A stretch of DNA of 64,000 bases from Nitrospirota bacterium (GCA_963754875.1 CAVWHO010000010.1:273327-337326); one strand, 5' to 3'. Counted from the first letter of the stretch, positions 39,882-64,000 are shown. Translations and numbers: made by a program. Notes: generated by a model from the sequence alone, not told the origin.

Positions 39882-40735
39882 AATATCTCGTTACGGGAAA
39901 AAACGGACAGCTCGCCCGGGAATTTATTCGTACGTTCGAAGAGCAAGCGATCGATTTCATCGCTCCTGATGAAGCCCATCTCGACATCACCGCTTTCGAA
40001 AAGGTAAAAGCCGTAGTGGGCGAGTACCGGCCTGATGTCATCATCAACTGCGCTGCTTATAATCTTGTTGACAAAGCCGAGCAGGAAAAAAGCGCGGCAA
40101 ATGCGGTAAACGCAGCAGGTCCGCATAACCTGGCGCAGGCCGCGAACGCACAAAAGGCCGTGCTCGTGCATTTCGGTTCCGACTACGTTTTCGATGGCGC
40201 GAAAGAGAATGGGTTATATTCCGAGGACGATGCCGTCAACCCGCTGAACGAATACGGGAAGAGCAAGCTTGCCGGCGAACAGCATGTTCTGGAAACGAAC
40301 GACCGGTCTTTGGTCCTGAGACTGAGTTGGGTCTTCGGCCCGGGGAAACAGAATTTTCTCTTCAAGCTCCGCGAGTGGACCAGGAACAGCGAATATCTCA
40401 AGATCGCCTGCGATGAGTTTTCAGTGCCGACCTCGACCGCCACTGTTGTCGACTTGACGATGAAGGCTCTCGCGCAAGGAGTAAACGGACGTTACCACCT
40501 GACGAACAGCGGCTACTGTTCCCGGTACGAGTGGGCCAGGGTGGCGCTCAGCCGCATGGGCATCAGGAAATTCATCAGGCCGGTGTCCATGGATTCGTTC
40601 AACCTTCCCGCGAAAAGACCGAAGTTCTCGGCCATGAGCAACAGCAGGATCGCGAGCACCCTGAACATACCGATTCCCTCATGGGAAGAAGCGGTCGAAT
40701 CATTCCTGGGAAAAGGCGGATTAATTGGTGAGTAA
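39878..40735 (+). CDS. rfbD: dTDP-4-dehydrorhamnose reductase
   Basis: [35 protein letters not shown]. Confidence 0.96.
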
Positions 40736-41867
40736 TGTGAATACGCGGGGAGCAGAAAGTCTCAATCTCCGGTCGGCGAATATCCTGGTGACGGGCGGCG
40801 CGGGGTTTATCGGTTCGAATTTCGTCAGGCATATATTTGAGAAAACCGACTTCAAAGGGACAGTCGTTAATTATGACAAACTGACCTATGCCGGCAACCT
40901 TGCAAACCTGAGGGATATCGAAAGTAAATTCGGCGGCAGGAGCTATTTTTTCGAGCGTGGCGATATTAACGATTTCGAAAATATCGGAAACGTTTTTAAA
41001 AAATACAGCATTAACGTTGTTGTCCACTTTGCAGCTGAGAGCCATGTGGACCGCTCGATTTTCGGGCCAAAGGATTTTATTGAGACGAACGTCAACGGGA
41101 CCTTCAGCATGCTCGAGACGTCACGTCAGGCCTGGTCGAATCGCAAAGACGTGCGGTTTCATCACATCAGCACGGACGAGGTCTACGGATCGCTCGGCGA
41201 CAGGGGCTTTTTTTACGAGACGACCCCTTACGACCCCCGGAGTCCTTATTCGGCGTCAAAGGCCGGATCGGACCATCTGGTAAGGGCATATTTTCATACC
41301 TATGGATTGCCGGTCACCGTCTCGAACTGCTCGAACAATTACGGTCCTTATCATTTTCCCGAAAAGCTGATTCCGCTGATGATATTGAACGCCGTCGAAG
41401 GAAAACCGCTTCCTGTCTATGGAGACGGCAAAAACGTGCGCGACTGGCTTTATGTCGGGGACCACTGCGAGGCGATCTGGCAAATACTGGAAAAAGGCAG
41501 GACAGGGGAGACCTATAATATCGGCGGAGAATGCGAAAAGCAGAACATCGAAGTCGTAAAAACGATCTGCGACCTGTTGGAAAAACTCTATCCCCTGAAG
41601 GACAACAAAGGCATTCAAAATGCAAAGCTCAAAATTCAAGACTATGGCGAACTCATCACATTCGTGGGCGATCGGCCGGGGCATGACCGCCGGTATGCCA
41701 TCAACTGCGACAAGATCAAAAAAGAACTGGGCTGGAAACAGCAGCATAGTTTCGAGGACGGCCTGAAAAGCACGATAGAATGGTACCTGGAAAATACCGC
41801 CTGGATTGACAATATCAGGAGCGGCGGCTATTCGAAATGGATTGATAAGAACTACGGCGGAAGATAG
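40728..41867 (+). CDS. rfbB: dTDP-glucose 4,6-dehydratase
   Basis: [45 protein letters not shown]. Confidence 0.97.
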
Positions 41868-41970
41868 CAAAGCGCAGAGAGCCGAGGACATAGCGCAGAG
41901 AGTAAAAGCTAGACTCCATGCCCTATGCTCTATGCTCTATGCTTCTACGCCATGCCCTATGCGCTCTGCT
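41866..41970. repeat. Inverted arms of degenerate heptamer repeats (rfbB-ugd junction)
   Basis: AGCAAAG/CGCAGAG/...CATAG left arm; CCCTATG/CTCTATG/CTCTATG...CTCTGCT right arm. Confidence 0.8.
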
Positions 41971-41995
41971 TAACTCTTAACATGCGAGGAGGATT

Positions 41996-43330
41996 ATGCG
42001 AATATCAGTAATCGGAACCGGCTATGTCGGACTGGTGACCGGCACCTGTCTTGCCGAAAGCGGCAACGACGTCATCTGCATGGATGTCGATTCGAAAAAG
42101 ATCGGGATGCTCAACTCCGGGAAGGTACCTATTTACGAACCGGGACTCGAGGAACTTATCAAACGCAATGTGGAACATGGGAGATTGACTTTCACCACGG
42201 ATATGGTCAATGCCGTGCGGACCTCTGAATTGATTTTTATCGCCGTAGGCACCCCGCCGGGAGAGGACGGATCAGCAGACCTCAAGTACGTTATCAGCGC
42301 TGCCAGGGAAATCGGCAGGCATATGAACGGTTATAAGATCATCATCAACAAGAGCACGGTACCGGTAGGGACCGGCGACAAGGTCAGGGCGGCGATTGCC
42401 TCTCAAACGAAGCGTAAATTCGATGTGGTCTCCAATCCGGAGTTCCTGAAAGAAGGGGCTGCCGTGGAAGATTTCATGAAACCGGACCGCGTCGTTATCG
42501 GCGCCAACAGCGCCAAAGCAAAGGAAATCATGCTGGACCTTTACGCACCTTTTGTCCGCAAAGGGGACCGGATCCTCATAATGGACATCAAAAGCGCTGA
42601 AATGACCAAGTATGCATCCAATGCGATGCTGGCAACCAAAATATCGTTCATCAACGAAATGGCGAATATTTGCGCCGGCCTCGGCGCCGACATCGACAGC
42701 GTGCGCCGCGGCATGGGATATGACAGGCGCATCGGTTTCGAGTTCCTCTTTCCCGGCGTAGGATACGGGGGCTCTTGCTTTCCGAAAGACGTAAAAGCCC
42801 TTGCCCAGACTGCGCAGGACATCAACGTCGATGCACAGCTGCTCAGATCCGTAGAGGCGGTGAATGAACGTCAAAAAAGCCTTCTCTCCGGCATGATCCT
42901 GCGTCATTTCTCCGGTTCGGCAGGACAAAAGAGCGTGAAGTCCAAAAAACCGCTGACCGGGAAAACAATTGCGGTCTGGGGCCTGTCGTTCAAACCGAAG
43001 ACCGATGACATGCGCGAAGCTCCTTCGGTAGTCATAATCAACAACTTGCTCCGCGCCGGAGCAGCGGTCAACGCTCACGATCCCGTTGCCATGAACGAGG
43101 CGCGCAAGATCTTCAAGAACAGGATCAACTACATGGAACAAGATTATGACGCTCTCCGAGGGGCTGATGCTCTGGCCGTTGTGACCGAGTGGAGCGAATT
43201 TCGGAACCCCGATTTCAAGAAGATAAAAAAACTGATGAAAAAACCGGTCATTTTCGACGGCAGGAATATATACACCAGGGAAGAGCTGCTGAAAGCCGGG
43301 TTTACGTATTACGGTATCGGAAGAAGATAA
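41996..43330 (+). CDS. ugd: UDP-glucose 6-dehydrogenase
   Basis: [33 protein letters not shown]. Confidence 0.96.
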
Positions 43331-43670
43331 GATATGGAGCGAGCCGACCATGTCGGCGTAAAGACGTTAAGGCGTAAAGCTTAAAGAACGGCAACACGGT
43401 TGCCTTGGTCCAAGAGATATGGAGCAAGCCGACCATGTCGGCGTAAAGACGTTAAGACGTAAAGCTTAAAGAACGGCAACGCGGTTGCCTTGGTCCAAGA
43501 GATATGGAGCAAGCCGACCGTGTCGGCGTAAAGACGTTAAGGCGTAAAGCTTAAAGAACGGCAACGCGGTTGCCTTGGTCCAGAAGATATGGAGCAAGCC
43601 GACCGTGTCGGCGTAAAGACGTTAAGACGTAAAGCTTGAAGAACGGCAACGCGGTTGCCTTGGTCCAAAA
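43331..43670. repeat. Four near-identical 85-bp tandem repeats with internal hairpins
   Basis: Units start at 43331, 43416, 43501 and 43586 (GATATGGAGC...CCTTGGTCC). Confidence 0.97.
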
Positions 43671-43716
43671 ACGCCTTGGTCCAAAGTTCCCTTGGTCCGA
43701 AAATTGAGGAGAAAGA

Positions 43717-44649
43717 ATGAGAATACTCGTAACCGGCGGCGCCGGATTTCTGGGATCACACCTCTGCGAGCGGCTGTTGGCAGCAGGAAATGAGGTGCTC
43801 TGTCTCGATAATTTTTTTACCGGCAGAAAAAAGAACGTGCAGCACCTGCTGAACAAGCCTTATTTCGAGCTAATCCGCCACGATGTGACCCTGCCGGTCC
43901 TGCTCGAAGTGGACAGGATCTATCATCTGGCTTGTCCTGCATCCCCTATTCATTATCAGTACAATGCCATTAAGACCATCAAAGCCAATGTGCTGGGGAC
44001 GATCAATATGCTCGGCATGGCAAAACGGGTAAAGGCGAGGATCCTCTTCGCCTCCACCTCGGAGGTGTACGGCGACCCCACGGTGCATCCCCAAAAGGAG
44101 GACTATTGGGGCAACGTGAACACCATCGGGATCAGGAGCTGCTACGACGAGGGCAAGCGCGTGGCAGAGACCCTGATGATGGACTACCACCGACAGAACA
44201 AGGTCGACATCAAGATCGTCCGCATATTCAATACCTACGGTCCACGCATGCTGCCCGATGACGGACGTGTCGTGAGCAACTTCATTATCCAGGCGCTCAA
44301 AGGCGAGGACATCACGGTCTACGGAAAAGGATCCCAGACGCGTTCATTCTGTTTTGTTGACGATCTTGTCGAAGGTATGATCCGCATGATGGACAGCGAG
44401 AACTTTACCGGACCGGTGAACCTCGGGAATCCGGAAGAATACACGATCCTCGAGTTCGCCCAGAAAATTATCTCTATGACGGGATCGAAATCGAAAATAT
44501 CGTATAAGCCCCTTCCGTCCGATGACCCCCAGCAGCGCCAGCCCGATATAACGCTTGCAGGCCAAAAACTGGGATGGAAACCCGTCGTTTCCGTGACGGA
44601 TGGACTGAAGAGAACCATAGACTATTTTGAGAAAGAACTGGCGTCGTAA
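43717..44649 (+). CDS. UDP-glucuronate decarboxylase (UDP-xylose synthase) family SDR
   Basis: [35 protein letters not shown]. Confidence 0.95.
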
Positions 44650-44650
44650 A

Positions 44651-44701
44651 GGCAGGGCGCATGGGGCAGAGGGCATGGTGAAAAACCCCATGCTCCATGC
44701 C
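44651..44701. repeat. Short inverted heptamer arms (uxs-kdsB junction)
   Basis: GGCAGGG/CGCATGG/GGCAGAG/GGCATGG then CCCATGC/TCCATGC. Confidence 0.7.
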
Positions 44702-44716
44702 GCTTTAAACAGGACA

Positions 44717-45490
44717 ATGAAAAATAATCAAAACCGCATCGTTGCCCTTATCCCCGCCCGTTACGGGTCCACCCGTTTTCCCGGCAAATCACTTGTCTCA
44801 ATAAAGGGAAAACCCATGATCCAATGGGTTTACGAGCGCACGCGGCTCTCGCGCCTCATCAATCGCGTTGTCGTTGCCACCGACGATGAGCGGATTATGC
44901 AAGCCGTCACGGCCTTCGGCGGAGAAGTTGTCATGACTTCGTCATCCCACCGGACCGGAACGGACCGTATCGCCGAGGTCGCGCGGAAGCTGGACTGCGA
45001 CATCGTGGTCAATGTGCAGGGAGACGAACCGTTGATCCAGCCTGAGATGATAGATGAGGCGGTCCGACCGCTCGTTGACGATGCTTCCATCCCCATGGGC
45101 ACGCTTTGCAAAAAAATCGAACGCCGTGATGAGGCCTTCGATACGAACGTGGTCAAGGTGGTCTTTGATCAAAACAACTTTGCACTGTATTTTTCCCGCG
45201 CGCCGATCCCCTGGGACCGGGACCACTGGTCAGGCAAAGAACCGCTCACGGAGATGGTTTTGGCAGGCACGATGTACAAGCACATAGGGTTGTATGTCTA
45301 TCGCCGTGAGTTCCTCCTGACTTATGCAGCATTGCCGCAAACCTCGCACGAAACATCGGAAAAGCTTGAGCAGCTCCGCGCGCTCGATCATGGACACAAA
45401 ATAAAAGTTGTGGTTACTCCATACGAGTCCTTTGGTGTTGACATCCCCGATGATTTGGGTAAAATACTGAAACATCTTGAAGAATGTTGA
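44717..45490 (+). CDS. kdsB: 3-deoxy-manno-octulosonate cytidylyltransferase
   Basis: [37 protein letters not shown]. Confidence 0.96.
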
Positions 45491-45498
45491 GGGCGGCC

Positions 45499-47148
45499 AT
45501 GGAAATGAAAAAGAAGGAAACAAAGTACATTTTTGTCACAGGCGGCGTGGTTTCGTCGCTCGGGAAAGGCCTTGCCGCGGCATCTATCGGCGCGCTCCTT
45601 GAATCACGGGGCCTCAAAGTGACGTTTCTGAAGCTCGACCCCTACATCAACGTGGACCCGGGGACCATGAGCCCGTTTCAGCATGGCGAAGTTTACGTGA
45701 CCGACGACGGCGCCGAGACGGACCTGGACCTCGGGCACTACGAGCGTTACACGAACGTTACCACGGCCCAGAAGAACAATTTTACGTCCGGAAGGATCTA
45801 TAACAACGTCATCACGAAAGAACGGCGCGGCGACTACCTCGGCGGCACGGTGCAGGTCGTGCCGCACATCACCGACGAGATCAAGCGCGCAATCACCGAT
45901 CTCGCTGACGACGAAGACGTCGTGATCGTGGAAATCGGCGGCACCATCGGCGACATTGAGAGCTTGCCGTTCCTTGAGGCCATCCGACAGCTTCGGTACA
46001 GCCTTGGCAGGCATAACGTGCTTTATGTTCATCTTACCCTCGTGCCCTTCATCAAAGCGGCCGATGAGCTCAAAACCAAACCCACACAGCACAGCGTCAA
46101 AGAGCTTCTCTCCATCGGAATCCAGCCGGATATCCTCGTGTGCAGAAGCGACCGGAATATTCCGAAAGATATGAAGCGTAAGATCGCGTTGTTCTGCAAC
46201 GTGGACGAGAACGCGGTCATCACGGCTCAGGACGTTGATACTATTTATGAAGTGCCCATTTGTCTGCACGAAGAGGGGATCGATGACCGCATCGCTGAAT
46301 TGCTGGATTTGAAGGTTTCGAAAATCGATCTCAAACCGTGGGAAAAGATCATTGAACGCGTCAAACATCCTTCGAAGAACGTCACCATCGCCCTTGTCGG
46401 TAAATATATCGACCTCAAAGAAGCGTATAAGAGCCTCTGCGAAGCGCTCACGCACGGCGGTATTGCCAATGACACGAGGGTGAACATCTGCTGGGCGGAC
46501 TCTGAAGACATAGAGAGCAGGGGAACCGAGGCCATGCTCAAAGGCATGGACGGTATTCTGGTTCCCGGCGGGTTCGGCATACGTGGGGTAGAAGGGAAAA
46601 TCGCGGCTGTCAAGTATGCCCGGGAAAACAAGATCCCGTACTTCGGCATCTGCCTCGGCATGCAGTGCGCCGTCATCGAGGCCGCGCGCAACCTCGCCCA
46701 TCTCGAGAAAGCGAACAGTTCGGAGTTCGATCTCAAGACGCCGCACCCGGTCATCTACCTGATCGAGCAGTGGTATGATTACCGAAATAAGAAAGTCCAA
46801 AAAAGGGACCTCACGAGCGACAAGGGAGGAAGCATGCGCCTGGGCGCATATCCCTGCAAGCTGGAAAAAGGCACGCTCGCCTATCAGGCATACGGAAAAG
46901 AGGAAATTTCCGAGCGACATCGTCATCGTTACGAATTCAATAATAAATATCTGGAAACGCTCAAGGCTGCCGGTCTCGCCATAAGCGGGGTTTCTCCCGA
47001 CGGAGCATTGGTGGAAATTGTGGAACTCAAAGACCACCCCTGGTTTCTTGGCTGCCAGTTCCATCCCGAGTTCAAATCAACGCCGCGGAAACCGCACCCG
47101 CTCTTCACGGCATTTATCGGAGCGGCCCTTAAAAAGAAAAGTTCTTAG
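45499..47148 (+). CDS. pyrG: CTP synthase
   Basis: [33 protein letters not shown]. Confidence 0.98.
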
Positions 47149-47159
47149 TTCGCCCCGGC

Positions 47160-47272
47160 AGTTCTTAGTTTTGAGTTTTTAGTTCTTAGTTGACTCATAA
47201 CTCACCACTACCATCAAAAGAGAAACAAAGTTGCCTAAAAAACTAAAAACTCAAAACTACAAACTGAGAACT
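47160..47272. repeat. Inverted heptamer arms (pyrG-kdsA junction)
   Basis: GTTCTTA/GTTTTGA/GTTTTTA left; ACTAAAA/ACTCAAA/ACTACAA/ACTGAGA right; 19-bp perfect complement TAGTTTTGAGTTTTTAGTT. Confidence 0.85.
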
Positions 47273-47284
47273 TAAAGGAATGCC

Positions 47285-48112
47285 TTGATTAAAGAAATAA
47301 ACATTCGCGGGGTAAAGATCGGCGGCAACAAACCTTTCGTTCTGATCGCGGGCCCCTGCGTAATCGAATCGGAAGGTGCGACGCTCGATGCTGCCGCGCG
47401 GCTCAAAAAAATCACGGCTGACCTCGGCATCCCGTTCATATTCAAGTCGTCCTATGACAAAGCGAACCGCAGCTCCGGGAAATCCTATCGGGGCCCGGGC
47501 CTGAAACAGGGGCTTCAAATTCTTCAACGAGTGGCAAACGAGCTGGACCTGCCTGTTCTTTCAGACGTGCATCGCTTTGAAGAGATCGCGCCGGCGGCGC
47601 AAGTGCTCGACGTCATCCAGATCCCGGCCTTTCTGTGCAGACAGACGGATTTCGTGATGGAAGTGGCAAAAACCGGGAAAGTGGTCAATATCAAGAAAGG
47701 CCAGTTCCTGGCGCCTTGGGACATGAAAAACGCCGTAGAGAAAGCCGTGGCCGCCGGGAATGATAAAATCGTTATTACCGAACGCGGCGTGTCCTTCGGA
47801 TATAACAACCTTGTTGCCGACATGCGCTCGCTTCCCATCATGCGGGCCCTGGGCTACCCGGTGATGTTCGACGCGACCCATTCCGTACAGCTTCCGGGCG
47901 CAGGTGGGACCGCATCGTCGGGAGACCGGAAGTTCGTGCCCCATCTTACGCGTGCCGCAGTGGCGGCAGGTGTCGACGCTCTTTTTATGGAAGTTCATGC
48001 CTGCCCTGACGAAGCTTTGTGCGACGGACCGAACATGCTGAGTTTGGATGACCTCCCGGGTTTGCTGAAACAGGCCCAGGAGATAGACAGGATTGTGAAA
48101 AGAGGCGCTTAG
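47285..48112 (+). CDS. kdsA: 3-deoxy-8-phosphooctulonate synthase
   Basis: [37 protein letters not shown]. Confidence 0.97.
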
Positions 48113-48166
48113 GGCAGAGTGCAAAAGGTTTCTCACCATGCACTATGCACCATGCGGGAATCAACT

Positions 48167-49138
48167 ATGTCCATAGAACAAGCAAAAAAAGTCCTGAGAA
48201 TAGAGGCAGAAGCCGTTGCCGCCCTCATCGAGCGGATCGACGAAAGCTTTGATAAGGCCGTTAAGATGATCCTGAACTGCGAGGGCCGCGTGGTCGTCAC
48301 CGGCATGGGCAAGTCCGGCTTGATCGGGAAAAAGATCGCCGCTACGCTTGCCTCGACCGGGACCCCGGCGCTCTTCCTGCATCCGGCAGAAGGTATCCAT
48401 GGCGACCTCGGCATGGTGACGAGGGGAGACACGGTCATCGCGCTGTCCAACAGCGGGGAGACCGACGAGCTGTCGCGCATGCTGCCGTCGCTTAAACGGC
48501 TGGGGATCGAGATCATCGCCCTCACCGGCAATGTCGATTCGACGCTGGCGAAAAACAGCGATGTGGTCATCAACGTCGGAGTGAAGGAAGAGGCTTGCCC
48601 CCTCGGTCTGGCGCCGACGGCGAGCACGACGGCCGCACTTGCCATGGGGGATGCTCTGGCAGTGGCCCTATTGGACAAACGGGGGTTCAGGGAGGAAGAC
48701 TTTGCCTGTTTCCATCCCGGCGGAGCGCTCGGCAAAAGGCTCCTCCTCCGCGTTCGCGACCTTATGCACACCGGAGATGACGTTCCCGTGGTTGCCGAAA
48801 CAACGTTAATTAAAGACGCCATCTACGAAATATCGTCGAAGAAGATGGGGGTCACAGCGGTGGTTGATGCCGCGGGAAAACTGATAGGCGTGATCTCCGA
48901 CGGCGACCTGCGCCGATGGATGGAAAAGACCGAAAAGGCCGGTGAAAACCTTCTCGCCAAAAAGGCCGCTGACATCATGACCGCGAATCCAAAAGTCGCG
49001 AACAAGGATTCTTTAGCAGCAGAAGCTGTTTCCATTATGGAAAAATATTCCATTACCTGCCTCATCGTTACCGATCCAGGAAAAAAGCCCGAAGGCGTGA
49101 TCCATCTCCACGATCTGCTGAAGGCGGGAGTGGTGTGA
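48167..49138 (+). CDS. kdsD: Arabinose-5-phosphate isomerase (KpsF/GutQ, SIS+CBS)
   Basis: TGMGKSGLIG, HGDLG, EACPLGLAPTAST, FHPGG. Confidence 0.95.
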   Translation: MSIEQAKKVLRIEAEAVAALIERIDESFDKAVKMILNCEGRVVVTGMGKSGLIGKKIAATLASTGTPALFLHPAEGIHGDLGMVTRGDTVIALSNSGETDELSRMLPSLKRLGIEIIALTGNVDSTLAKNSDVVINVGVKEEACPLGLAPTASTTAALAMGDALAVALLDKRGFREEDFACFHPGGALGKRLLLRVRDLMHTGDDVPVVAETTLIKDAIYEISSKKMGVTAVVDAAGKLIGVISDGDLRRWMEKTEKAGENLLAKKAADIMTANPKVANKDSLAAEAVSIMEKYSITCLIVTDPGKKPEGVIHLHDLLKAGVV

Positions 49139-49156
49139 CTCTGATTCTGCAGGGGG

Positions 49157-49350
49157 GAGTGAGCAGAGAGCATAGAGTTCCAAGTTTTGAGTTTTGAGTT
49201 GTGAGTCATTAACTTTGAGGCGGCTAACGAGTAGGGCTAATTCAAAACTAGCAACATCGGACTGAAAACTGACCATAAGCGCCATGCTCCATGCACTTTG
49301 CGTGATACTGATCAACACGGTTCCCTTGGTCCAAAATTGCCTTGGTCCCA
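49157..49350. repeat. Nested inverted heptamer arms plus CCTTGGTCC motifs (kdsD-kdsC junction)
   Basis: CAGAGAG/CATAGAG outer left, TTTTGAG x2 inner left, CAAAACT/GAAAACT inner right, CGCCATG/CTCCATG outer right, then CCTTGGTCC x2. Confidence 0.75.
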
Positions 49351-49356
49351 AAAATA

Positions 49357-49869
49357 ATGAGAAAATCCAGACAGAGCCTCCAATCAAAAGCGAAAAAAAT
49401 CAAACTTCTCCTGCTTGATGTGGACGGCGTATTGACCGACGGAACAATCATCCTGGACAACCAGGGAAATGAGCTCAAAGCCTTTCACGTCAGAGACGGG
49501 CACGGGATCAAGCTCGCCCAGCGGGCCGGCATTGTCATGGGCATTATCACCGGCAGAAAGTCCGAAGTAGTAAACATCCGCGCCCGGGAGCTCGGCATCG
49601 AGGAAGTGCACCAGGGGGCCCTGAAGAAGATAGAGATCTACGAGTCCATTCTTGCCAAATACGGTGTCCACGATGAAGAAGTGGCATATATGGGAGACGA
49701 CATCGTGGATGTAGACATCTTCAAGCGCGCAGGTGTTGCTGTTACGGTATCGGATGCCGACCCCTCTGTGGGGCCTTACGTCGATATGATCACGAAGAAT
49801 GAAGGGGGCAGGGGAGCAGTGCGTGAATTCATCAACCTGCTCCTGAAAAGCCAGGGAAAGCAGCTCTAG
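49357..49869 (+). CDS. kdsC: KDO 8-phosphate phosphatase (HAD)
   Basis: LLLDVDGVLTDG, FHVRDG, YMGDDIVD, GGRGAVRE. Confidence 0.95.
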   Translation: MRKSRQSLQSKAKKIKLLLLDVDGVLTDGTIILDNQGNELKAFHVRDGHGIKLAQRAGIVMGIITGRKSEVVNIRARELGIEEVHQGALKKIEIYESILAKYGVHDEEVAYMGDDIVDVDIFKRAGVAVTVSDADPSVGPYVDMITKNEGGRGAVREFINLLLKSQGKQL

Positions 49870-49870
49870 C

Positions 49871-50770
49871 ATGAACGAACGGCTGCTTCAGGTAAGAAAG
49901 CGCATTACCCTGGCCGCACTGATTGCGATCACCTGGCTCATCAAACTGTTTTCCCTCATCGTACCCTATAGAATCGGTGTCCGTGCAGGCGGGGTCCTGG
50001 GATACATCACCTATTATCTGCTTCCCAAAGAGCGAAAAAGGGCCATCGCTCATTTGACCCTGGCATATGAAGAACGCGGCCAATCGTGGATCCGCTCCAC
50101 TGCACGGCGTTGCTTTGTCCATTTAGGCAAGTCTATGCTTGAAGTCATGCTCATGAAGCCTGGCAGGCTGGCAGGCGTAGTCGAGATCCGCGGGGAGGAA
50201 TGCCTCCGGGATGCCCTCAGCCGGGGCAAAGGGGTCGTTTGGGTCACCGGCCACATCGGCAACTGGGAGTTGATGGCCCATGCGATTGCGCAAAAATATC
50301 CCGTCAGCGTGATCGCCGCGCCGATCGAGCCGGAACAGGTCAATGACATGATCGTCGGCATGCGTGCGCGTATGGGTGTCAAGACGATCTTGCGCACCAG
50401 ACCGGGGGCATCGAAGGAACTGATCCGCGCGTTCAGGGAAAACCTGGTCCTGGGCATTCTGATCGACCAGGACACCGATGTGGAGAGCGCCTTCGTCGAC
50501 TTCATGGGGAGGCCGGCCTGGACGCCCACTGCTGCGGCATCCATGGCGATCAAATTCGGAGCGCCGGTGATTTTCGGCCATATCAAACGCGGGGCCGGCG
50601 ACCGGCATGCCATCGTGATCGAAGGCCCCCTGGACATTACCATTACGGGCGACCGGGAAAAAGATATCATCGCGAATACGGCCATGCTGACAAAAAAAAT
50701 AGAGGATTGCATACATAAGGACCCCGAACAATGGGTTTGGATGCACCGACGCTGGAGGAGACAGCCGTGA
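49871..50770 (+). CDS. Lipid A biosynthesis acyltransferase (LpxL/HtrB family)
   Basis: GHIGNWE, ILIDQD, PEQWVWMHRRW. Confidence 0.93.
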   Translation: MNERLLQVRKRITLAALIAITWLIKLFSLIVPYRIGVRAGGVLGYITYYLLPKERKRAIAHLTLAYEERGQSWIRSTARRCFVHLGKSMLEVMLMKPGRLAGVVEIRGEECLRDALSRGKGVVWVTGHIGNWELMAHAIAQKYPVSVIAAPIEPEQVNDMIVGMRARMGVKTILRTRPGASKELIRAFRENLVLGILIDQDTDVESAFVDFMGRPAWTPTAAASMAIKFGAPVIFGHIKRGAGDRHAIVIEGPLDITITGDREKDIIANTAMLTKKIEDCIHKDPEQWVWMHRRWRRQP

Positions 50771-51327
50771 AGATCTTCAATGTGCCGAATATGCTCTCAA
50801 TCAGCCGCATTTTGTCGGTGCCGGTATTTATCGTGCTTATGCTCGAACCGAACCCGGTCCGTGCTTTGGCTGCAGGGATCGTGTTTTCCCTCGCCTCAGC
50901 CACTGACTGGCTCGATGGGTACCTGGCGAGAAAGTGGGGACAGGTGACCAAGATGGGCAAGCTGCTGGACCCCATCGCGGACAAAATATTGATCATGTCG
51001 GCGCTGGTTATGCTGGTCGAAATCCGCTCCGACGTCGTACACGCCTGGATTGCAATTGTGATCATCGGAAGGGAATTTGCCGTTACCGGCCTCCGCGCTA
51101 TTGCGTCGAGCGAAGGGATCATCATCCCGGCCGAGACCGTGGGGAAATACAAGGTAGGGGCCCAAATCACGGCTGTGCTTTCGCTGCTTCTCGATTATTA
51201 TTTGCCGAATGAACGGCTCAGGGAACTCGGTGCCGCTGCGCTCTGGGTAGCCATGGTCCTGGCGGTCTACTCGGCTGTGCGTTATTTCATGCGTTATTGG
51301 AGCCAGCTGGACTACGAAAACAGTTAA
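50767..51327 (+). CDS. pgsA: CDP-diacylglycerol--glycerol-3-phosphate 3-phosphatidyltransferase
   Basis: PNMLSISR, TDWLDGYLARKWGQVTKMGKLLDPIADK. Confidence 0.95.
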   Translation: MKIFNVPNMLSISRILSVPVFIVLMLEPNPVRALAAGIVFSLASATDWLDGYLARKWGQVTKMGKLLDPIADKILIMSALVMLVEIRSDVVHAWIAIVIIGREFAVTGLRAIASSEGIIIPAETVGKYKVGAQITAVLSLLLDYYLPNERLRELGAAALWVAMVLAVYSAVRYFMRYWSQLDYENS

Positions 51328-51436
51328 TAGTTTTTAGTTTTAAGTTTTGAGTTAAACTGCTCGTCCTTAAAACTGAGAGACTAAATAGGAAATTAAGAAC
51401 TAAGAACTAAGAATTAAGAACTAAGAACTGAGAACT
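51322..51436. repeat. Inverted heptamer arms (pgsA-plsY junction)
   Basis: AGTTTTT/AGTTTTA/AGTTTTG left; (C/T)TAAGAA x5 plus CTGAGAA right. Confidence 0.88.
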
Positions 51437-51443
51437 ATTTATT

Positions 51444-52046
51444 ATGATGCACATGTTTGAAATAGTTGCCGTCATAGCATCCTATCTGATAGGGGCCATT
51501 CCATTCGGGCTCATCTTTTCCAGAATATTCTTAAACATCGACGTACGGACCATCGGAAGCGGGAACATCGGCGCCACGAATGTGTTGCGCGCTGCCGGGA
51601 AAAAGGCCGCAATCCTGACCCTGTTGGCCGACGCGCTCAAGGGGTTCCTTCCGGTCCTCATTGTTCAGCACTTGTTCAATGCAGAGCTGACGACCGCGCT
51701 TTCAGGCGTTGCTGCGGTCCTGGGGCACAACTTTCCCGCGTACCTCAAATTCAAAGGCGGGAAAGGCGTGGCCACGAGTTTCGGCGTGCTCCTTGCCGTC
51801 TCCCCGTGGATAGGGCTCGTTTCGCTGCTCGCCTGGCTCGCTGCGGCCGTCATCTGGCGCTATTCATCGCTCTCCGCGCTCGTAGCATTCGCGTGTTATC
51901 CTGCCTTGACGTTTACGGTCACAAGAGAGGTTTCTCAACCGTACAAAGCCCTATCGTTGTTTATCTTCGCCATGATCTACTACCGGCACCGGGAGAACAT
52001 AAAACGGCTCATTGCGGGCACGGAGCCGAAGATAGGGAAAAAATGA
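51444..52046 (+). CDS. plsY: Glycerol-3-phosphate acyltransferase
   Basis: [36 protein letters not shown]. Confidence 0.96.
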
Positions 52047-53509
52047 AAATCAATTGCCGACGGATTAGATATGGTAATAATTTTATCGCTGTTGTCGTAA
52101 CCACGTTATTTTTTTTAGTACCTTCTCTTACCGGCATTGCCCATGCAGACTATGCCGAAGACCTGAAAGATAAGACTGCTGATTTTTCCAAAGTTCAAGA
52201 GCCATCTCCCTATGTGATCAAGCCGATCAGCAGGCTTACGATGCAGGATTTTTATTATTCAGATCATGCCGACCGACCTTACTGTTTTGAGAACTCCGAA
52301 GGAAGGTGTCTTGATAAGCAAAATAACTTTTTTACGACTCTTGAAGGAAATGGACAATACAAAAACAGGTTCTATGTTTATTACAAATCAGAGTTAAATG
52401 GGGACGGCCAGTTAAGGCTTAAAAAAGGCTATGGACTGGTCAAAATGGGTATTTGGTCCTTTGAAGCCGGCAAAGACACGATATGGATAGGGCCTGGTTA
52501 CCATAATTCTTTTCTTCTCTCCAACAATGCCGAAGGGATCAATCTCTTCAGGTTAAGGACTGATGAGCCTTTCAGGCTTCCCTGGATATTTTCCAACCTC
52601 GGTGAATTTAAGTATGATATTTTCAGAGGTTTCGCTGACAACTTCAGCATATTAGGACATACTTTGAGTTGGCGGCCAGTACCGTTGCTCGAATTAGGCG
52701 CAAATCAAGTCGTTTATATTCCTCCAGATAAACATTACAGTATTACAGAATATCCACACATATTTTTTTCGAACAGCGAGAATAGTGGCGGAACACAGGC
52801 GACAAACCCCTACAATAATGATCAGAAAGTAAGTCTCGATATCGCTCTTGACATGCCTTTTCTGAACAAAGTATCTCCTTTTGTCAATGGAAGGATATAT
52901 GCTGAGTATGGAGGAAACGATTCTTATGCTATATGGCAGCATGAAGACACGGCAAATATGCGGAAAGAACCGCTGAGAAAAAAATTGATATGGCCATTCC
53001 AATTTGATTTTCTCAACATCGCCTGGCTGTCAGGAGTATTTTTAACTACAGGAGACGTTGATTTCAGGTTTGAATATGCCCAGAATTACACTAGCTACCC
53101 TATTTTTTATGATTTATACAACGAATTGGCTAATTTTAACAGACGGCATGGCTACTGGTATTCGAGTCTCAATACCAACTACGGTATGATCACTGGCGCT
53201 GAAATGGGCAATGATGCAGATGACTATTATTATGAAATTACCATTCGACATAATCCCGGTTCTCTTAAAATCTATTTTGATCAAGAACGCCATGGTTTAT
53301 CGAAAGATATCACCTATCCGCCGGAGAAGAGAGACGAATACGGATTGAGACCGGCTTATCAATTCAAAAATTATACTTTCTTCGCAGATCTCGTATATAA
53401 CCACTATAAAAACGTGAATTTCAGCTCAGATCCCACAGTGATTGATATCCATGCCGGTACGGAACTTGACGAGTTCATAGCCGGACTCGGTGTGGAAGTA
53501 GGTTTTTAA
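52043..53509 (+). CDS. Capsule assembly Wzi-family outer-membrane protein
   Basis: Signal peptide from ATG 52043; GKDTIWIGPGYHNSFLLSNNAE; terminal VGF. Confidence 0.75.
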   Translation: MKINCRRIRYGNNFIAVVVTTLFFLVPSLTGIAHADYAEDLKDKTADFSKVQEPSPYVIKPISRLTMQDFYYSDHADRPYCFENSEGRCLDKQNNFFTTLEGNGQYKNRFYVYYKSELNGDGQLRLKKGYGLVKMGIWSFEAGKDTIWIGPGYHNSFLLSNNAEGINLFRLRTDEPFRLPWIFSNLGEFKYDIFRGFADNFSILGHTLSWRPVPLLELGANQVVYIPPDKHYSITEYPHIFFSNSENSGGTQATNPYNNDQKVSLDIALDMPFLNKVSPFVNGRIYAEYGGNDSYAIWQHEDTANMRKEPLRKKLIWPFQFDFLNIAWLSGVFLTTGDVDFRFEYAQNYTSYPIFYDLYNELANFNRRHGYWYSSLNTNYGMITGAEMGNDADDYYYEITIRHNPGSLKIYFDQERHGLSKDITYPPEKRDEYGLRPAYQFKNYTFFADLVYNHYKNVNFSSDPTVIDIHAGTELDEFIAGLGVEVGF

Positions 53510-53527
53510 ACTCTATCAGTCAATTTC

Positions 53528-54025
53528 GTTTTTCCGGTTTGTGTAGTTTATTTGGTTTGTCTGGTTGTAATAACAGCAAATGGGAGAAAACTACCATGAA
53601 GATAAACCGTTTCGAAGACCTCCAGTGTTGGCAGGAATCACGCAAATTGACGAACATGGTATATAAAGCAATACACAACAGCAAAGCATTCCAATCCGAT
53701 TATCGATTAAAAGACCAAAGCATCGGCGCTGCTGTATCAGTAATGGGTAATATCCCTGAGGGTTTCGTTCGCCGCTCCAATAAAGAGTTCATTCAGTTTT
53801 TATTTATATCGGTAGCGCCGCCGCAGAATTACAATCACACTTCTATGTGGCTCTTGATCAGGGCTATATAAGCCAAGAGGCTTTCGACACTATTTATCAG
53901 CAAACTGAGAAAACAGCCAAGATTATTTCCGGTCTGATAACATATTTACGTAGCAACGTCAAAAAGCCCACACAAGCGAAATAACAAAACAAACCAGACG
54001 AACGACACAAACCAAAAAAACCAAA
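53528..54025. repeat. Inverted nonamer-repeat arms flanking a four-helix-bundle gene
   Basis: GTTTTTCCG/GTTTGTGTA/GTTTATTTG/GTTTGTCTG (53528-53563) and CAAACCAGA/CGAACGACA/CAAACCAAA/AAAACCAAA (53990-54025). Confidence 0.8.
53596..53984 (+). CDS. Four-helix-bundle protein (TIGR02436/23S-IVP/Avd-like), frameshift near 53812
   Basis: MKINRFEDLQCWQ...DQ...AAVSVMGNIPEGF.R.SNKEFIQFL; shifted frame gives SAAELQSHFYVALDQGYI...SGLITYL. Confidence 0.88.
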
Positions 54026-54165
54026 ATCCATCCCCTAAAAATACCCTGCCAAAAGTTATGATTAATCTTTACTTTCCTGGATATTTCTCTTATAATCAAT
54101 AGGTTTGAAATAAAAATATTAATACCTATTCATTGGGACGCTAAACAGTTTATTGCAAATAATTC

Positions 54166-54687
54166 ATGGAACAAGCTTCTTCTAAAGATGCTGCGCACTG
54201 GTATGCAGTGCATGTGAAATCAAGGCATGAATTTCGGGTATACGAGAGATTGACGGGGGCGGGGATCAACACGTTCCTGCCCTCGATGAAACGACTCAGC
54301 AAGTGGAAAGACAGAAACAAGCTCGTCGAATTCCCTCTTTTCCCAGGATATCTCTTCGTTCAAATCGACAAAGGCCACGATTCGCGCATAACCATATTAA
54401 AAACTCAAAGTGTCGTTCGTATTCTTGGCACAGTTACCGGTGAACCGGAACCTGTGCCCGAGGAGCAGATTCAGTCCTTGATGAAGATTATCGATGCCGG
54501 CGTACCTCTTGATCCTTATCCCTATCTTCAGGAAGGTCAAAGAATCAGGATAAAGAGGGGACCCCTTGCAGGCATCGAGGGATTGCTCGTTGAAAAGACC
54601 GGCCAGCAGAAGCTGGTACTATCCATAGACATCCTCAGTCAAAGCACGTCCGTCACCATCCAGGCATCGGAGGTTGAGAGAATATAG
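54166..54687 (+). CDS. UpxY/RfaH-like NusG-paralog transcription antiterminator
   Basis: WYAVHVKSRHE, PLFPGYLFV, KOW motif GQRIRIKRGPLAG. Confidence 0.93.
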   Translation: MEQASSKDAAHWYAVHVKSRHEFRVYERLTGAGINTFLPSMKRLSKWKDRNKLVEFPLFPGYLFVQIDKGHDSRITILKTQSVVRILGTVTGEPEPVPEEQIQSLMKIIDAGVPLDPYPYLQEGQRIRIKRGPLAGIEGLLVEKTGQQKLVLSIDILSQSTSVTIQASEVERI

Positions 54688-54725
54688 ATCAAGTTGCTTT
54701 CGCTTTGTTCTTTTCGAAATACACC

Positions 54726-54782
54726 TTGACACTTGATAATGCTGCATGTACAATGCATTGTTCAAAATTGAACAATGCATTG
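54726..54782 (+). promoter_or_regulatory. sigma70 promoter overlapped by a perfect 15-2-15 palindrome (operator)
   Basis: TTGACA-17-TACAAT (54726-54754); CAATGCATTGTTCAA-AA-TTGAACAATGCATTG (54751-54782). Confidence 0.8.
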
Positions 54783-54831
54783 CTAGGAATCTTTTCCGTA
54801 ACGTTGGAGTTTACACCCAATTCCGAAATTT

Positions 54832-55215
54832 ATGAAGTCCACATTACACAGCACGCAGATATTACGGGATATATCAAAAAACCCAAGCATTTCTCAACGA
54901 GAGCTTGCGTTAAAGAACAATATCAGCCTGGGCAAGGTGAATTATGCGATCAGCGCATTGATCGAAAAAGGGTACATTAAAATACAGAATTTTAAAGGCT
55001 CGAAGAACAAGCGAAACTATATGTACATCCTCACTCCGAAGGGAATGTACGAAAAGACAAAACAGGCGTCTGATTTCTTGAAATGGAAGATGGTAGAGTA
55101 CGAGCGCATCAAGACGGAAATAGCTGAACTGGAAGCGGATATCAATGGACATCAGGAGCATGGCTCGATAGTTCAGCAGCAGGAGACGCAGAACATTTTC
55201 ACAGAAGAGATGTAA
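54832..55215 (+). CDS. MarR-family EPS-associated transcriptional regulator
   Basis: SQRELA...SLGKVNY...L.EKGYIK..NFK.SKNK..Y.YILTPKG. Confidence 0.92.
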   Translation: MKSTLHSTQILRDISKNPSISQRELALKNNISLGKVNYAISALIEKGYIKIQNFKGSKNKRNYMYILTPKGMYEKTKQASDFLKWKMVEYERIKTEIAELEADINGHQEHGSIVQQQETQNIFTEEM

Positions 55216-55491
55216 TGTTAGTGGTTGGAAAGCCCATAGTTCCTTTTGCGTAGCTGCTCGGCTTTTTGTCATGCCGGGATGATAGCCAGATACATTGAGG
55301 ACTCGATAAATTTCGCAAAATTGATAGACCTGTCAGTCAATGTGACTGAGAGGGCGGAGCTGTGTAAACAGGATTTCATACTATTTTTGCTACTCGCAAT
55401 AAGCTTTTAATTGAACCGAGGACCTAACACTCGAAACTACGATCTATCGATAGCGAAAAATTAACTATGACTCATGAACTGCAGTAGTTTT

Positions 55492-56427
55492 ATGGAAAAA
55501 AACTCAAAAATCTACATAGCCGGCATCAATGGCATGGTTGGTTCAGCAATCAAACGGCAGACTGCTATCCGAAGGGTTTACGAACGTCGCGGGACACTCA
55601 TTCAAAAGAGCTGGACCTCACCAATCAGTCCGCGGTAAATGAGTTTTTTCCAAAGAGAAAAACCTGAATACCTGTTCCTGGCTGCCGGCAAAGTAGGCGG
55701 TATATATGCCAATAACACGTATCCCGCGGATTTTATTTACACTAACCTGATTATTGAATGCAATATCATTCACGGCGCATATAAAACAGGCGTGAAAAAA
55801 CTTCTTTTACTGGGGTCATCATGCATCTATCCGAAATATGCGCCACAGCCGATGAAAGAAGAGTATCTTCTCAGCGGTACGCTTGAACCGACCAATGAGC
55901 CCTATGCCGTGGCTAAGATCGCGGGGATCAAAATGTGCGAATCCTACAATCGGCAATATGGGACCGATTTTATTTCCTGCATGCCGACCAACCTTTACGG
56001 GCCGAATGATAACTACGACGCGATGAACTCTCACGTCCTGCCTGCATTGATCCGGAGGTTTCATGAAGCAAAAGTGAATGGAGCACATGAGGTTGTTGTG
56101 TGGGGCACCGGGACAGCGCTGCGTGAGTTTCTTTACGTTGATGATCTGGCCGATGCGTGCTTGTTCCTCATGAACAATTATACGGGGAACGAGACCGTGA
56201 ATGTAGGGTCCGGCATGGAAGTCTCGATTCGTGCATTGGCTGAGACCGTTCAGGAGATCGTGCAGTTCAACGGGAAGCTCGTTTTCGACAACACGAAGCC
56301 CGACGGCACGCCAAGAAAACTGCTGGACACCTCGAAGTTGGCAGGAATGGGGTGGAAGGCGAAGACGCCCCTAAAAGAAGGAATTAAGCTTGCTTACGCG
56401 AATTTCTTAAAAAATGTTGAGTTTTGA
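55492..56427 (+). CDS. fcl: GDP-L-fucose synthase, frameshifts near 55555-55650
   Basis: [20 protein letters not shown] at 55492; ORF 55639 has [31 protein letters not shown]. Confidence 0.92.
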
Positions 56428-56441
56428 GTTTGAAGTTGCGT

Positions 56442-56794
56442 ATGAGGAAATAACCTCGTGAAGATAGATGAGTGGATATTGGATTTAGCGTTACTGATAT
56501 AGAATCATACAGATACTTATGAAAACGGAATCGTTCTCTCGAAACAACTTCTTAGGTCCGGAACATCTATAGGCGCGAATGTTACGAGGCGCAGGCTGCC
56601 AAAGCAAAAAAGATTTTGTCTTCAAGATGGCTATTGCGTCAAAAGAAGCGAGGGAAACCGACTCTGGTTGAGATTACTCGAAGTCGGGTTTTTTAACTGA
56701 TTTCGATAACAAGATAAACGCTTAACATGAAGTAATCGCGATCATAGATATTATAACGAAAATTGTTAAAACATCCCGAAGCAAGTGTCGATAG
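56442..56794 (+). pseudogene. Four-helix-bundle gene with many indels
   Basis: Fragments LSKQLLRSGTSIGANV, SKKDFVFKMAIASKEARET, WLRLL and ITKIVKTS are recognisable but broken by indels. Confidence 0.8.
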
Positions 56795-56857
56795 TGAGTG
56801 TTCGTTCTGATTGAGTCCAAACTGCCAAAAGCCTACTCAAACTCAAAACAGCGTTAT

Positions 56858-57986
56858 ATGGACAAAGGTCATCCAAAACCCAACACCCAACACTCAAAAC
56901 CCAAAACAGCACTTATCACTGGTGTGACCGGCCAGGACGGCGCATATCTTGCCGAGTTCCTGCTCAAAAAAGGCTACGAAGTCCACGGCATCAAGCGCCG
57001 GTCTTCAATGTTTAATACGGACAGGATAGATCATCTGTATCACGATCCGCACGAGAAAAATGTTAAGTTTAAACTGCATTATGGCGATCTGACCGATTCA
57101 ACGAACCTGATACGGATCATTCAGGAAGTGCAGCCTGATGAAATTTACAATTTGGCTGCCCAAAGCCATGTGCACGTGTCCTTTGAAACGCCGGAATATA
57201 CGGCAAACGCCGATGCTATCGGCACGCTCAGGATTCTGGAGGCAATACGGATTCTTGGCCTGACAAAGAAATGCAAGTTCTACCAGGCATCGACTTCAGA
57301 GCTCTACGGTCTGGTACAGGAGACTCCACAGAAAGAAACGACTCCCTTTTATCCGAGGAGCCCCTACGCTTGCGCAAAATTGTACTCCTATTGGATAACG
57401 GTGAATTACCGGGAAGCATACGGAATCTTCGGGTGTAACGGCATTCTTTTCAACCACGAATCTCCTCTTCGCGGTGAAACGTTCGTCACGCAGGAAAATT
57501 ACCAGGGCTGTTGCAAGGATTAAATTGGGATTCCAGGAAAAAATCTATCTCGGCAATATTAACTCGAAAAGAGACTGGGGACATGCAAAGGATTACGTCG
57601 AGGCCCAGTGGATGATCCTGCAGCAAGACAAACCGGAGGACTTTGTAATCGCTACCGGAGAACAACATTCAGTCAAGGAATTTGTGGAAGCTGCTTTCCA
57701 GGAAGTGGGGATGCAGGTGCGGTGGGAAGGGGCGGGCATAGCGGAAAAAGGATACGATAAAATCTCCGGGAAAGTTCTCGTAGAAGTCGATTCTCGTTAT
57801 TTCCGCCCAACGGAAGTTGAGACGCTTCTCGGCGATCCCACCAAGGCCAAAACAAAACTTGGCTGGAAGCCCAAGGTCACGTTCCATGAGTTGGTGTCGG
57901 AAATGGTAAGAGAAGATCTTAAAGAAGCGGAGCGAGATCAATTGTGCAAAAAGGAAGGCTTTCAGGTGATGAATCATCATGAATAG
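56858..57986 (+). CDS. gmd: GDP-mannose 4,6-dehydratase, frameshift near 57490
   Basis: [36 protein letters not shown] | [21 protein letters not shown]. Confidence 0.95.
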
Positions 57987-58072
57987 CTATATGGAAGGCG
58001 AGGAAGAAAAGCTGTAATGCAAAGTAAGAAACACACCTCCAGATACTCAAAGACATCAAGAAGGGAAATCGC

Positions 58073-59712: not shown

Positions 59713-59781
59713 ATTCTATGCCAATTACTTGACATCATGCATTCTATGTGCGGAAATCAAATTTTAACAGATGAGGTTGCT

Positions 59782-60819
<1,038 letters not shown>

Positions 60820-60870
60820 CTGTTGCTTATCAATACAAGATTGCAAGTCCAACCCAAAGTAGTCACTCTT

Positions 60871-63997: not shown

Positions 63998-64000
63998 CTA

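Follow-up and report, generated by a model that had tools for sequence, protein, structure and literature searches.

The closest described counterpart of the elements reported here is the intervening sequence (IVS) in helix 45 of the Coxiella burnetii 23S rRNA, which carries an open reading frame (ORF) of the four-helix-bundle S23p family within a terminal stem containing heptamers; this stem is cut by RNase III (Warrier et al. 2016, PMC4990558). Here we describe arrays of short tandem repeats that occur as inverted arms at gene junctions in a 64,000-nucleotide stretch from a Nitrospirota bacterium (GCA_963754875.1, CAVWHO010000010.1:273327-337326), hereafter the window. At two of these junctions the arms enclose a gene of the same protein family (S23p, PF05635/TIGR02436).

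Related repeats have been reported elsewhere. In Geobacter metallireducens, 7- or 8-mers repeated three to five times in tandem form pairs, one array on each strand, that are variably spaced and lie between genes, as at proB-proA; these are unconserved in the sister species and were seen as 'putative global regulator binding sites' of IHF/HU type (Aklujkar et al. 2009, PMC2700814); the main text of that paper contains neither 'helix bundle' nor 'S23', hence no link to a cargo gene. Intergenic heptamers of Beggiatoaceae, Cyanobacteria and Bacteroidetes were treated as regulator sites, with horizontal spread suspected; these are single direct-repeat sets of two to six units upstream of starts, sometimes reversed after stops or within ORFs, and the main text mentions neither 'helix bundle' nor 'intervening' (MacGregor 2015, PMC4679880). 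Stray genes of the four-helix-bundle family lie inside cas operons (PMC3936711), and Avd of diversity-generating retroelements (DGRs) is a pentameric barrel similar to S23, all five protomers of which contact an RNA stem-loop (10.1101/2023.10.23.563531).

Like the 23S rRNA IVS, the gene-bearing units of the window (here called cassettes) have terminal inverted repeats around an S23p-family ORF that are predicted to loop the gene out. They measure ~490-500 nt, against 428 nt in Coxiella, where the 5' stem has tandem heptamers of a copy number that varies between strains. They differ in lying between protein-coding genes (wzi/upxY and fcl/gmd) instead of in 23S rRNA, and in occurring several per genome with different units, outnumbered by gene-less copies. 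REPINs and their RAYT genes (Bertels and Rainey 2011, PMC3116915) resemble them as inverted doublets in extragenic space that are short, fall into several families, each tied to a flanked small gene, and may be nested. However, the arms described here are tandem 7-9-mers without a conserved palindrome or REP end, no near-identical copies occur, and the linked gene is PF05635 and not an HUH tyrosine transposase. In contrast to DGRs, no template or variable repeat and no dedicated reverse transcriptase (RT) stand beside the window's genes; no RT was found in the window at all.

The first-pass annotation of this DNA, made by a model from the sequence alone, knew of no described mechanism. This is correct for mobility, but heptamer-built, RNase III-cut stems around this family are known from the Coxiella IVS. 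The literature searched, in which subscription journals are mostly uncovered, yielded no paper that treats gene-plus-arms cassettes of mRNA operons as a class of their own, and the term 'TIGR02436' was not found in it; the supplements of PMC2700814, which give the genes adjoining the paired sites, might bear on the former. The pieces are published, as the Coxiella 23S IVS and the Geobacter paired arrays, but nothing that joins them was found.

Inverted arms accompany a four-helix-bundle gene

All eight junctions named in the first-pass annotation carry a left array and a reverse-complementary right array where it had placed them (inspection of the sequence and Tandem Repeats Finder, TRF; Table 1). 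As it had also recognized, two sites enclose a four-helix-bundle gene and the other six are empty; the two are wzi–upxY and fcl–gmd, and both genes are of TIGR02436/PF05635. The gene at 53596 exceeds the cut-offs of the family hidden Markov models (E 5e-15; 55.6 bits against 24 and 61.1 against 33.8). The one at fcl–gmd, in which stops are present, matches TIGR02436 marginally (24.4 bits, E 9e-5) and locus L035 at 45% (tblastn).

The association extends far beyond the window. In the genome to which the window belongs (G000; 90% complete, own gene calls used), arms flank six of the seven TIGR02436 loci, each with its own unit (by eye). Among related genomes they are present at 23 of 30 such loci, compared with 38 of 240 swapped flank pairs. 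In GTDB, 61 of 77 scored loci from many phyla, one of them archaeal, have arms, with period 7 in 50 of the 61, whereas distal controls gave 0/68. The GTDB loci are the best 80 of 601, less three dropped for short flanks, and lean to one part of the family because the search used the narrower of two alignments; in the broad family alignment no conserved stretch was found. A search with one query detected the gene on 34 plasmid records out of 72,556 and on no phage record out of 50,697.

Arm units follow the protein. The proportion of locus pairs sharing similar units climbs from 1% at protein identities below 50% (36/2,703) through 28/691 (50-59%) and 35/151 (60-69%) to 48% at 70% or more (12/25). 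Plasmid cassettes of Nostoc punctiforme and Aulosira laxa, encoding proteins 75% and 72% identical to that of the gene at C10:200k in G000, have arms equal to those of this gene, and a Picosynechococcus relative at 68% has arms of an 8-mer. In G032, which belongs to a different family within the phylum, an upxY-like start is preceded by a gene with nonamer arms from the clade that includes the 53596 gene (by eye).

The units themselves are diverse, 53 different ones being found at 66 loci. What is constant in the arms is the period and the length, which is four to five units in about two-thirds of arms (at gene-bearing loci, four to five consecutive units in 46/68 left and 45/68 right arms), and, at gene-bearing loci only, the dinucleotide AG, present in 51 of the 53 distinct inward units (32.5 expected). 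The only solved homologues retrieved by profile, 2GSC and 2RLD, have five chains each.

Distribution across the genome

The genome-wide scan for periodicity and inverted arms that the first-pass annotation had suggested was run, and both a period-7 excess and inward pairing were found. Lag-7 self-match segments number 162, against 6, 7, 7, 16, 12 and 13 at lags 4, 5, 8, 10, 11 and 13, so that the 7-periodicity is beyond chance; 209 of 250 lag-7 arrays are intergenic. Our main counts rely on a family-agnostic score for periodic inverted matches, by which 59 of 2,835 junctions have paired period-7 arms, compared with 2 of 2,835 in shuffles and at most 6 for other periods. The figure of 59 is a lower bound, since decayed sites such as rfbB–ugd (score 5), kdsD–kdsC (5) and the weak kdsA–kdsD (0) are missed; three of the 59, on C12, duplicate sites on C11, and a few others are probably noise. 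A k-mer detector derived from the data proved too permissive (130 real against 36 shuffled co-directional positives), and one weighted by background, which yielded 19 pairs, was too strict; site counts for single families are approximate. The ribosomal-protein/rpoB region occurs twice in opposite orientation with identical arms, at the end of C11 and the start of C12, which is likely an assembly overlap.

The random spread, devoid of polarity or gene link, that would speak against the first-pass view was not seen: the arms face inward and are tied to four-helix-bundle genes. In the strict set 19 pairs are inward and none outward, and the G-richer arm comes first in 51 of 59 sites. As an inverted pair is identical on both strands, the latter reflects inward orientation of the element and not polarity of transcription. 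Sites are clustered: 55 of 111 have another site no more than 5 kb away, where 25 are expected and 1,000 draws gave 47 at most. The window stands out as a hot spot, with arms at 5 of 11 junctions.

The arms are not confined to the lipopolysaccharide/exopolysaccharide region, where the first-pass annotation had noticed them. Nor is a polysaccharide-operon code supported: in the vicinity of further genes for epimerases or glycosyltransferases only 1 of 81 co-directional junctions has arms, against 86 of 2,079 elsewhere. No polysaccharide locus is among 20 regions sampled outside the window (about every third of the 59 sites, one divergent and one window site being swapped for two others; 5 of 40 sampled proteins lack a Pfam match at 1e-10). 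The sampled sites include trpE-trpG, trpD-trpC, hisD-hisG, type II secretion E-F, rplK-rplA, rplL-rpoB, rnf, efflux pumps and gapA. At least 24 arrays lie in frame inside genes, including those for a P-type ATPase, an SRP54-type GTPase and a CobQ-like protein. By eye, heptamer arms also adjoin tRNA-like genes, with a four-helix-bundle gene in G031 (L043) and without one at C22:208438-208873 in G000.

Arms and genes in the window

The arms punctuate an operon-like run of genes, rmlACD-rfbB-ugd-uxs-kdsB-pyrG-kdsA-kdsD-kdsC-lpxL-pgsA-plsY-wzi, followed by upxY, marR, fcl and gmd; the label uxs is that of the first-pass annotation, model matches there being only to generic epimerase/dehydratase. 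Relative to shuffles, five of the empty junctions fold with z of -2.8 (rfbB–ugd), -2.4 (uxs–kdsB), -6.2 (pyrG–kdsA), -2.3 (kdsA–kdsD) and -3.8 (pgsA–plsY), whereas kdsD–kdsC (-0.6) is not significant; the filled sites have z of -4.0 (wzi–upxY) and -1.8 (fcl–gmd). The placement of arms between the stop codon and the next ribosome-binding site (RBS), as first described, has an exception at wzi–upxY, where the right arm ends ~140 nt before upxY, with a promoter-like site between. At fcl–gmd a second right-type array lies within the gmd coding start, and the gmd model begins at residue 16 of the ORF from 56858.

Table 1. Repeat arms, cassette genes and neighbouring repeats in the window (TRF, Tandem Repeats Finder)
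Position	Strand	Feature	Evidence
41613-41639	+	Lone right-type heptamer array, ~3 units, in frame in variable rfbB loop	TRF period 7
41866-41904	+	rfbB–ugd left arm, first unit family (GCAKAGn/CTMTGC), begins at rfbB stop	Sequence
41911-41970	+	rfbB–ugd right arm	TRF period 7, 8.3 copies
43330-43703	+	ugd–uxs, 85-bp REPIN-like element in four tandem units, distinct from the heptamer arm pairs	TRF
44651-44701	+	uxs–kdsB empty hairpin, first family; left 44651-44678, right 44686-44701	
47140-47276	+	pyrG–kdsA empty hairpin, second family (TTTTGAG/CTCAAAA); left 47140-47191 overlaps pyrG stop, right 47236-47276	
48112-48156	+	kdsA–kdsD small decayed empty hairpin, first family	TRF right arm
49151-49301	+	kdsD–kdsC nested hairpins	Sequence; nested fold predicted
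49151-49177, 49274-49301		kdsD–kdsC outer pair, first family	
49176-49212, 49239-49272		kdsD–kdsC inner pair, second family	
49313-49352	+	Single end of 85-bp REPIN-like family before kdsC	blast match at C10:322639
51318-51439	+	pgsA–plsY empty hairpin, second family; left 51318-51356, right 51383-51439	
53528-53566	+	wzi–upxY cassette, left nonamer arm	TRF period 9
53596-53984	+	wzi–upxY four-helix-bundle gene (TIGR02436/PF05635), one frameshift near 53815	
53985-54027	+	wzi–upxY cassette, right nonamer arm; predicted stem with left arm closes around gene	
56412-56436	+	fcl–gmd cassette, left arm, second family, overlaps fcl stop	
56442-56793	+	fcl–gmd four-helix-bundle gene, several frameshifts/stops, limits approximate	TIGR02436, tblastn
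56833-56909	+	fcl–gmd right arm 56833-56853; second right-type array 56869-56909 translated as GMD N-terminus	
41914-41970, 47160-47191, 47238-47276, 48134-48155, 49183-49206, 51328-51353, 51394-51437, 56417-56431, 56873-56907		Period-7 arrays as delimited by TRF	TRF
44651-44678		Period-14 array	TRF
53528-53566, 54009-54026		Period-9 arrays	TRF

In the assembly both four-helix-bundle genes, fcl, gmd and a second nucleotide-sugar dehydrogenase are frameshifted (53000-64000). In contigs of relatives the extra bases at 55558, 55600 and 57492 are missing, and the frameshifts of this region, probably including those of the two cassette genes, are likely assembly errors near the contig end. The RfbB loop that the lone array encodes is absent in three relatives and consists of a different heptamer in four others, which suggests that units there drift in place; the loop in G003 looks intermediate between units. 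Rfam had no match in 40000-60000. Rho-independent terminators (a short GC stem with a U tract) were considered and rejected: 17 terminator-like hits lie in 41500-57500, and no heptamer or nonamer arm pair is among their positions.

Orthologous junctions in related genomes

The comparison of junctions among relatives for filled and empty alleles, also suggested in the first-pass annotation, was successful in part: filled, empty and bare states contrast elsewhere in the genome, but no filled allele was seen at the six empty junctions of the window, where none of the 20 relatives' regions has a four-helix-bundle gene. For wzi–upxY and fcl–gmd, no orthologues were found in ten downstream regions of relatives.

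At the window junctions many relatives have short spacers (pyrG–kdsA 9/19 and kdsA–kdsD 12/20, both at most 25 nt; rfbB–ugd 7/14, pgsA–plsY 5/14). In others the junction contains a hairpin built of a different unit, an unrelated palindrome or an entire inserted gene. Even in contigs ~95% identical, uxs–kdsB and kdsA–kdsD are replaced by other sequence. The position between stop codon and RBS can be explained by insertion into junctions of no more than 25 nt, as many relatives have, where no other place would tolerate an insert; there is no need for a regulatory role. At kdsD–kdsC one arm pair is nested in another and followed by a REPIN-like end, which suggests repeated invasion of a single spot.

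Nine cassettes of relatives have flanking genes that are adjacent in G000. G000 shares one of these cassettes; opposite two others its junction measures -4 and 2 nt, and opposite the remaining six it has a spacer of 78-434 nt with no gene. The 2-nt junction, between genes 94% and 89% identical, faces the cassette of G006 (L033); G003 and G015 have a cassette at a place where the 109 nt of G000 contain no gene.

Other insertions at the same junctions were also observed. Palindromic repeat families unrelated to the heptamers fill them in L004, L005, L014, L017 and L018. The kdsA–kdsD insert of one relative (L003:1850-2700) and the pyrG–kdsA insert of another (L010:5100-6160) are nucleotidyltransferase/HEPN-like by eye; one encodes a single fused 233-aa ORF and one a pair of 141 and 138 aa. 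In L003 the final kdsA codons are repeated beyond the insert.

Pairing between the arms

If the arms formed a pairing code at the transcript level, G-U pairs should exceed A-C mismatches on the sense strand and each arm should fit its own partner best. Neither holds. G-U and A-C number 68 and 70 at the empty sites and 56 and 64 at gene-bearing loci; at the empty sites the own partner is better in 4 cases, worse in 7 and tied in 6. The sense strand has the lower minimum free energy (MFE) in 24 of 47 cases, and the longest perfect helix has a median of 9 bp. The element is strand-symmetric, and the translational-coupling or RNA-processing code considered in the first-pass annotation is not supported by the sequence. 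Nor is it supported by the distribution over junction types, convergent junctions (10/343) being as rich as co-directional ones (48/2,171), with 1/321 among divergent ones.

Arm-to-arm identity at the empty sites has a median of 73%. Aligned arm positions match more often at gene-bearing loci (85%) than at empty sites (72%), and at the former, variant units are common to the own partner in 17 cases versus 10. The better match at gene-bearing loci fits decay after loss of the gene, although detection differs between the two sets.

Neighbouring repeat systems

A second type of element occupies the same junctions. The 85-bp family, an imperfect inverted element, has 39 blast matches at ~22 places in the genome, and at kdsD–kdsC in G019 a RAYT-like gene, interrupted by an internal stop, stands between such ends (L015:9961-10620; 63.7 bits on a partial ORF, cut-off 80). 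This is a REPIN/RAYT-like system separate from the heptamer arms. Both GxxExxY loci of G000 (C11:6381-6725 and C13:90892-91216) have inverted 8-10-mer arms of their own and constitute a parallel gene-plus-arms system in which the gene is not a four-helix bundle. At C8:33170-35870 (L170) a group II intron (Rfam RF02003 plus RT) lies in a long nonamer array downstream of a four-helix-bundle gene. A DGR beside this cassette (C8:33.7k) was considered and rejected, as its RT, the sole one adjoining a cassette, belongs to the intron and no template/variable repeat pair is present.

Origin of the paired arrays

That the arrays are footprints of a cassette system, one of two options in the first-pass annotation, is borne out by the gene-plus-arms layout here and across phyla, by the co-variation of arm unit and protein, and by filled, empty and bare alleles at orthologous junctions. 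We consider it probable that the paired arrays are the ends of a small IVS-like cassette, that the arms are binding arrays for the cassette's own five-chain protein and that the empty hairpins are gene-less derivatives. The cassette, consisting of a left arm, a four-helix-bundle gene and an inverted right arm, would be the mRNA-dwelling counterpart of the ORF-bearing 23S rRNA IVS and likely moves as a unit between operon junctions and species, its mobility being something we infer, as neither a transposase nor a clear target duplication is seen. Empty hairpins would remain, or be regenerated, upon loss of the gene. Folding would loop the cassette out and keep it nearly neutral, and it may survive only where an insert is tolerated: from stop codon to next RBS, between convergent genes, or as in-frame protein loops of ~3 units (21 nt). 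The in-frame arrays inside genes are in line with the same rule.

The role of the arms is suggested more tentatively. Each might provide four to five binding sites for an Avd-like five-chain ring, roughly one unit per subunit; a ring-binding array would account for the co-variation of protein and unit and for arms that match at the level of the family consensus and not base for base. The five-subunit reading would follow indirectly from the chains of 2GSC and 2RLD and from likeness to Avd, the Pfam bAvd match being weak (E 3e-4, score 21.6, below the cut-off of 40). The inserting enzyme would not be encoded in the cassette, and our guess is a borrowed host activity, RT or recombination; seven matches to RT genes in G000 show availability only.

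Several observations weigh against this reading. The cassette gene has no transposase, nuclease or RT domain, PF05635 being its sole Pfam domain, and the single-query search of phage records was negative. Target duplication is unclear, direct repeats of at least 5 nt occurring at 11 of 59 sites against a background of 9.9%, with arm limits uncertain. Recent copying has left no signal: best whole-element similarity is at most 0.69, with no near-identical copies, and loops within families are unrelated (mean score 12.0 versus 11.1). None of the seven loci in G000 has a gene that matches the commonest empty family there (in a genome 90% complete), and in G010 (84% complete) hairpins were found but no gene. 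AG is not enriched in the G000 junction elements (14 of 21 units, 11.8 expected). As gene and arms are physically linked, co-inheritance alone can give co-variation, and our tree, built by a quick method, has good support for 7 of its 82 branches.

A bolder version, which we put forward as a speculation with a small chance of being right, is that orphan four-helix-bundle proteins are sequence-specific Avd-like rings, each recognizing an array of its own with one heptamer per subunit (four to five), which borrow a host RT or recombinase and seed cassettes and gene-less hairpins into nearby transcribed junctions. There is a hint of local seeding, which we also count in favour of the IVS-like cassette itself. 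Of the eight further arrays built of the fcl–gmd unit, four are no more than 15 kb from the fcl–gmd cassette, and 4 of 13 pairs of neighbouring sites are of one family, against 155 of 1,527 (p 0.037), both comparisons being post hoc; G019 has a nonamer at four of the window's junctions and a nonamer-flanked gene downstream. Against local seeding, four other cassettes have 1, 0, 0 and 0 arrays within 15 kb, and only 1 of 50 GTDB flanks of 1.2 kb displays it.

Among the alternatives, the one that survives best, though we find it unlikely, holds that the empty hairpins are REPIN-like non-autonomous elements copied in trans by a RAYT, a GxxExxY nuclease or another activity, the gene being an occasional passenger in the loop. 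There are roughly ten times as many empty sites as filled ones (59 against 6), divergent junctions are avoided (p 0.012), and the clustering, the REPIN/RAYT-like family in the same junctions and the arms of both GxxExxY loci would all suit such copying. However, copies of the heptamer hairpins are never near-identical, unlike those of the 85-bp family (ends mostly 92-100% identical), and the tight link between unit and four-helix-bundle clade is unexpected for a passenger.

It is more doubtful still that the hairpins are host-selected RNA signals (RNase III sites, stabilisers, or pause or coupling elements) tuning operon stoichiometry. Their position is suggestive, as at the 48 co-directional sites the left arm starts within -8 to +17 nt of the stop in 39 and the right arm ends 4-36 nt ahead of the next start in 30. 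Most window junctions fold better than shuffles, folding of the sense strand is lower in 66 of 108 cases of a permissive, noisy set, an RNase III gene is present (split in the assembly), and RNase III cuts the Coxiella IVS stem (PMC4990558). The absence of a G-U excess, of a sense-strand MFE advantage and of own-partner preference argues against this explanation, as do the lack of enrichment by operon class and of conservation, the same junctions being bare or occupied by unrelated elements in relatives.

Least probable is the view that the arrays have nothing to do with mobility and either grew by slippage as simple repeats or serve as DNA sites of a global or nucleoid regulator, as in the IHF/HU idea already put forward for Geobacter metallireducens (Aklujkar et al. 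2009, PMC2700814). Strand symmetry and consensus-level matching suit inverted double-stranded DNA sites, and the drift of units between families at one orthologous place, the RfbB loop, also favours this view. Their near absence from divergent, promoter-bearing junctions and the dozens of different units speak against it, and one gene family bracketed across phyla by always-inward arms is left unexplained.

Implications

For annotation, the hairpins should not be taken as signals of polysaccharide operons, and in-frame copies give spurious-looking loops in enzymes, RfbB and GMD among them. The proposed IVS-like cassette, of which the Coxiella IVS with its heptamer stems is an already known member, joins three oddities published separately: the function-less S23p/four-helix-bundle family, the excess of intergenic heptamers in bacteria and the 'regulator site' pairs of Geobacter. 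If Avd-like rings do seed these elements, these would represent a transposase-free class of mobile element, from which most of the heptamer repeats still unexplained in bacteria would stem.

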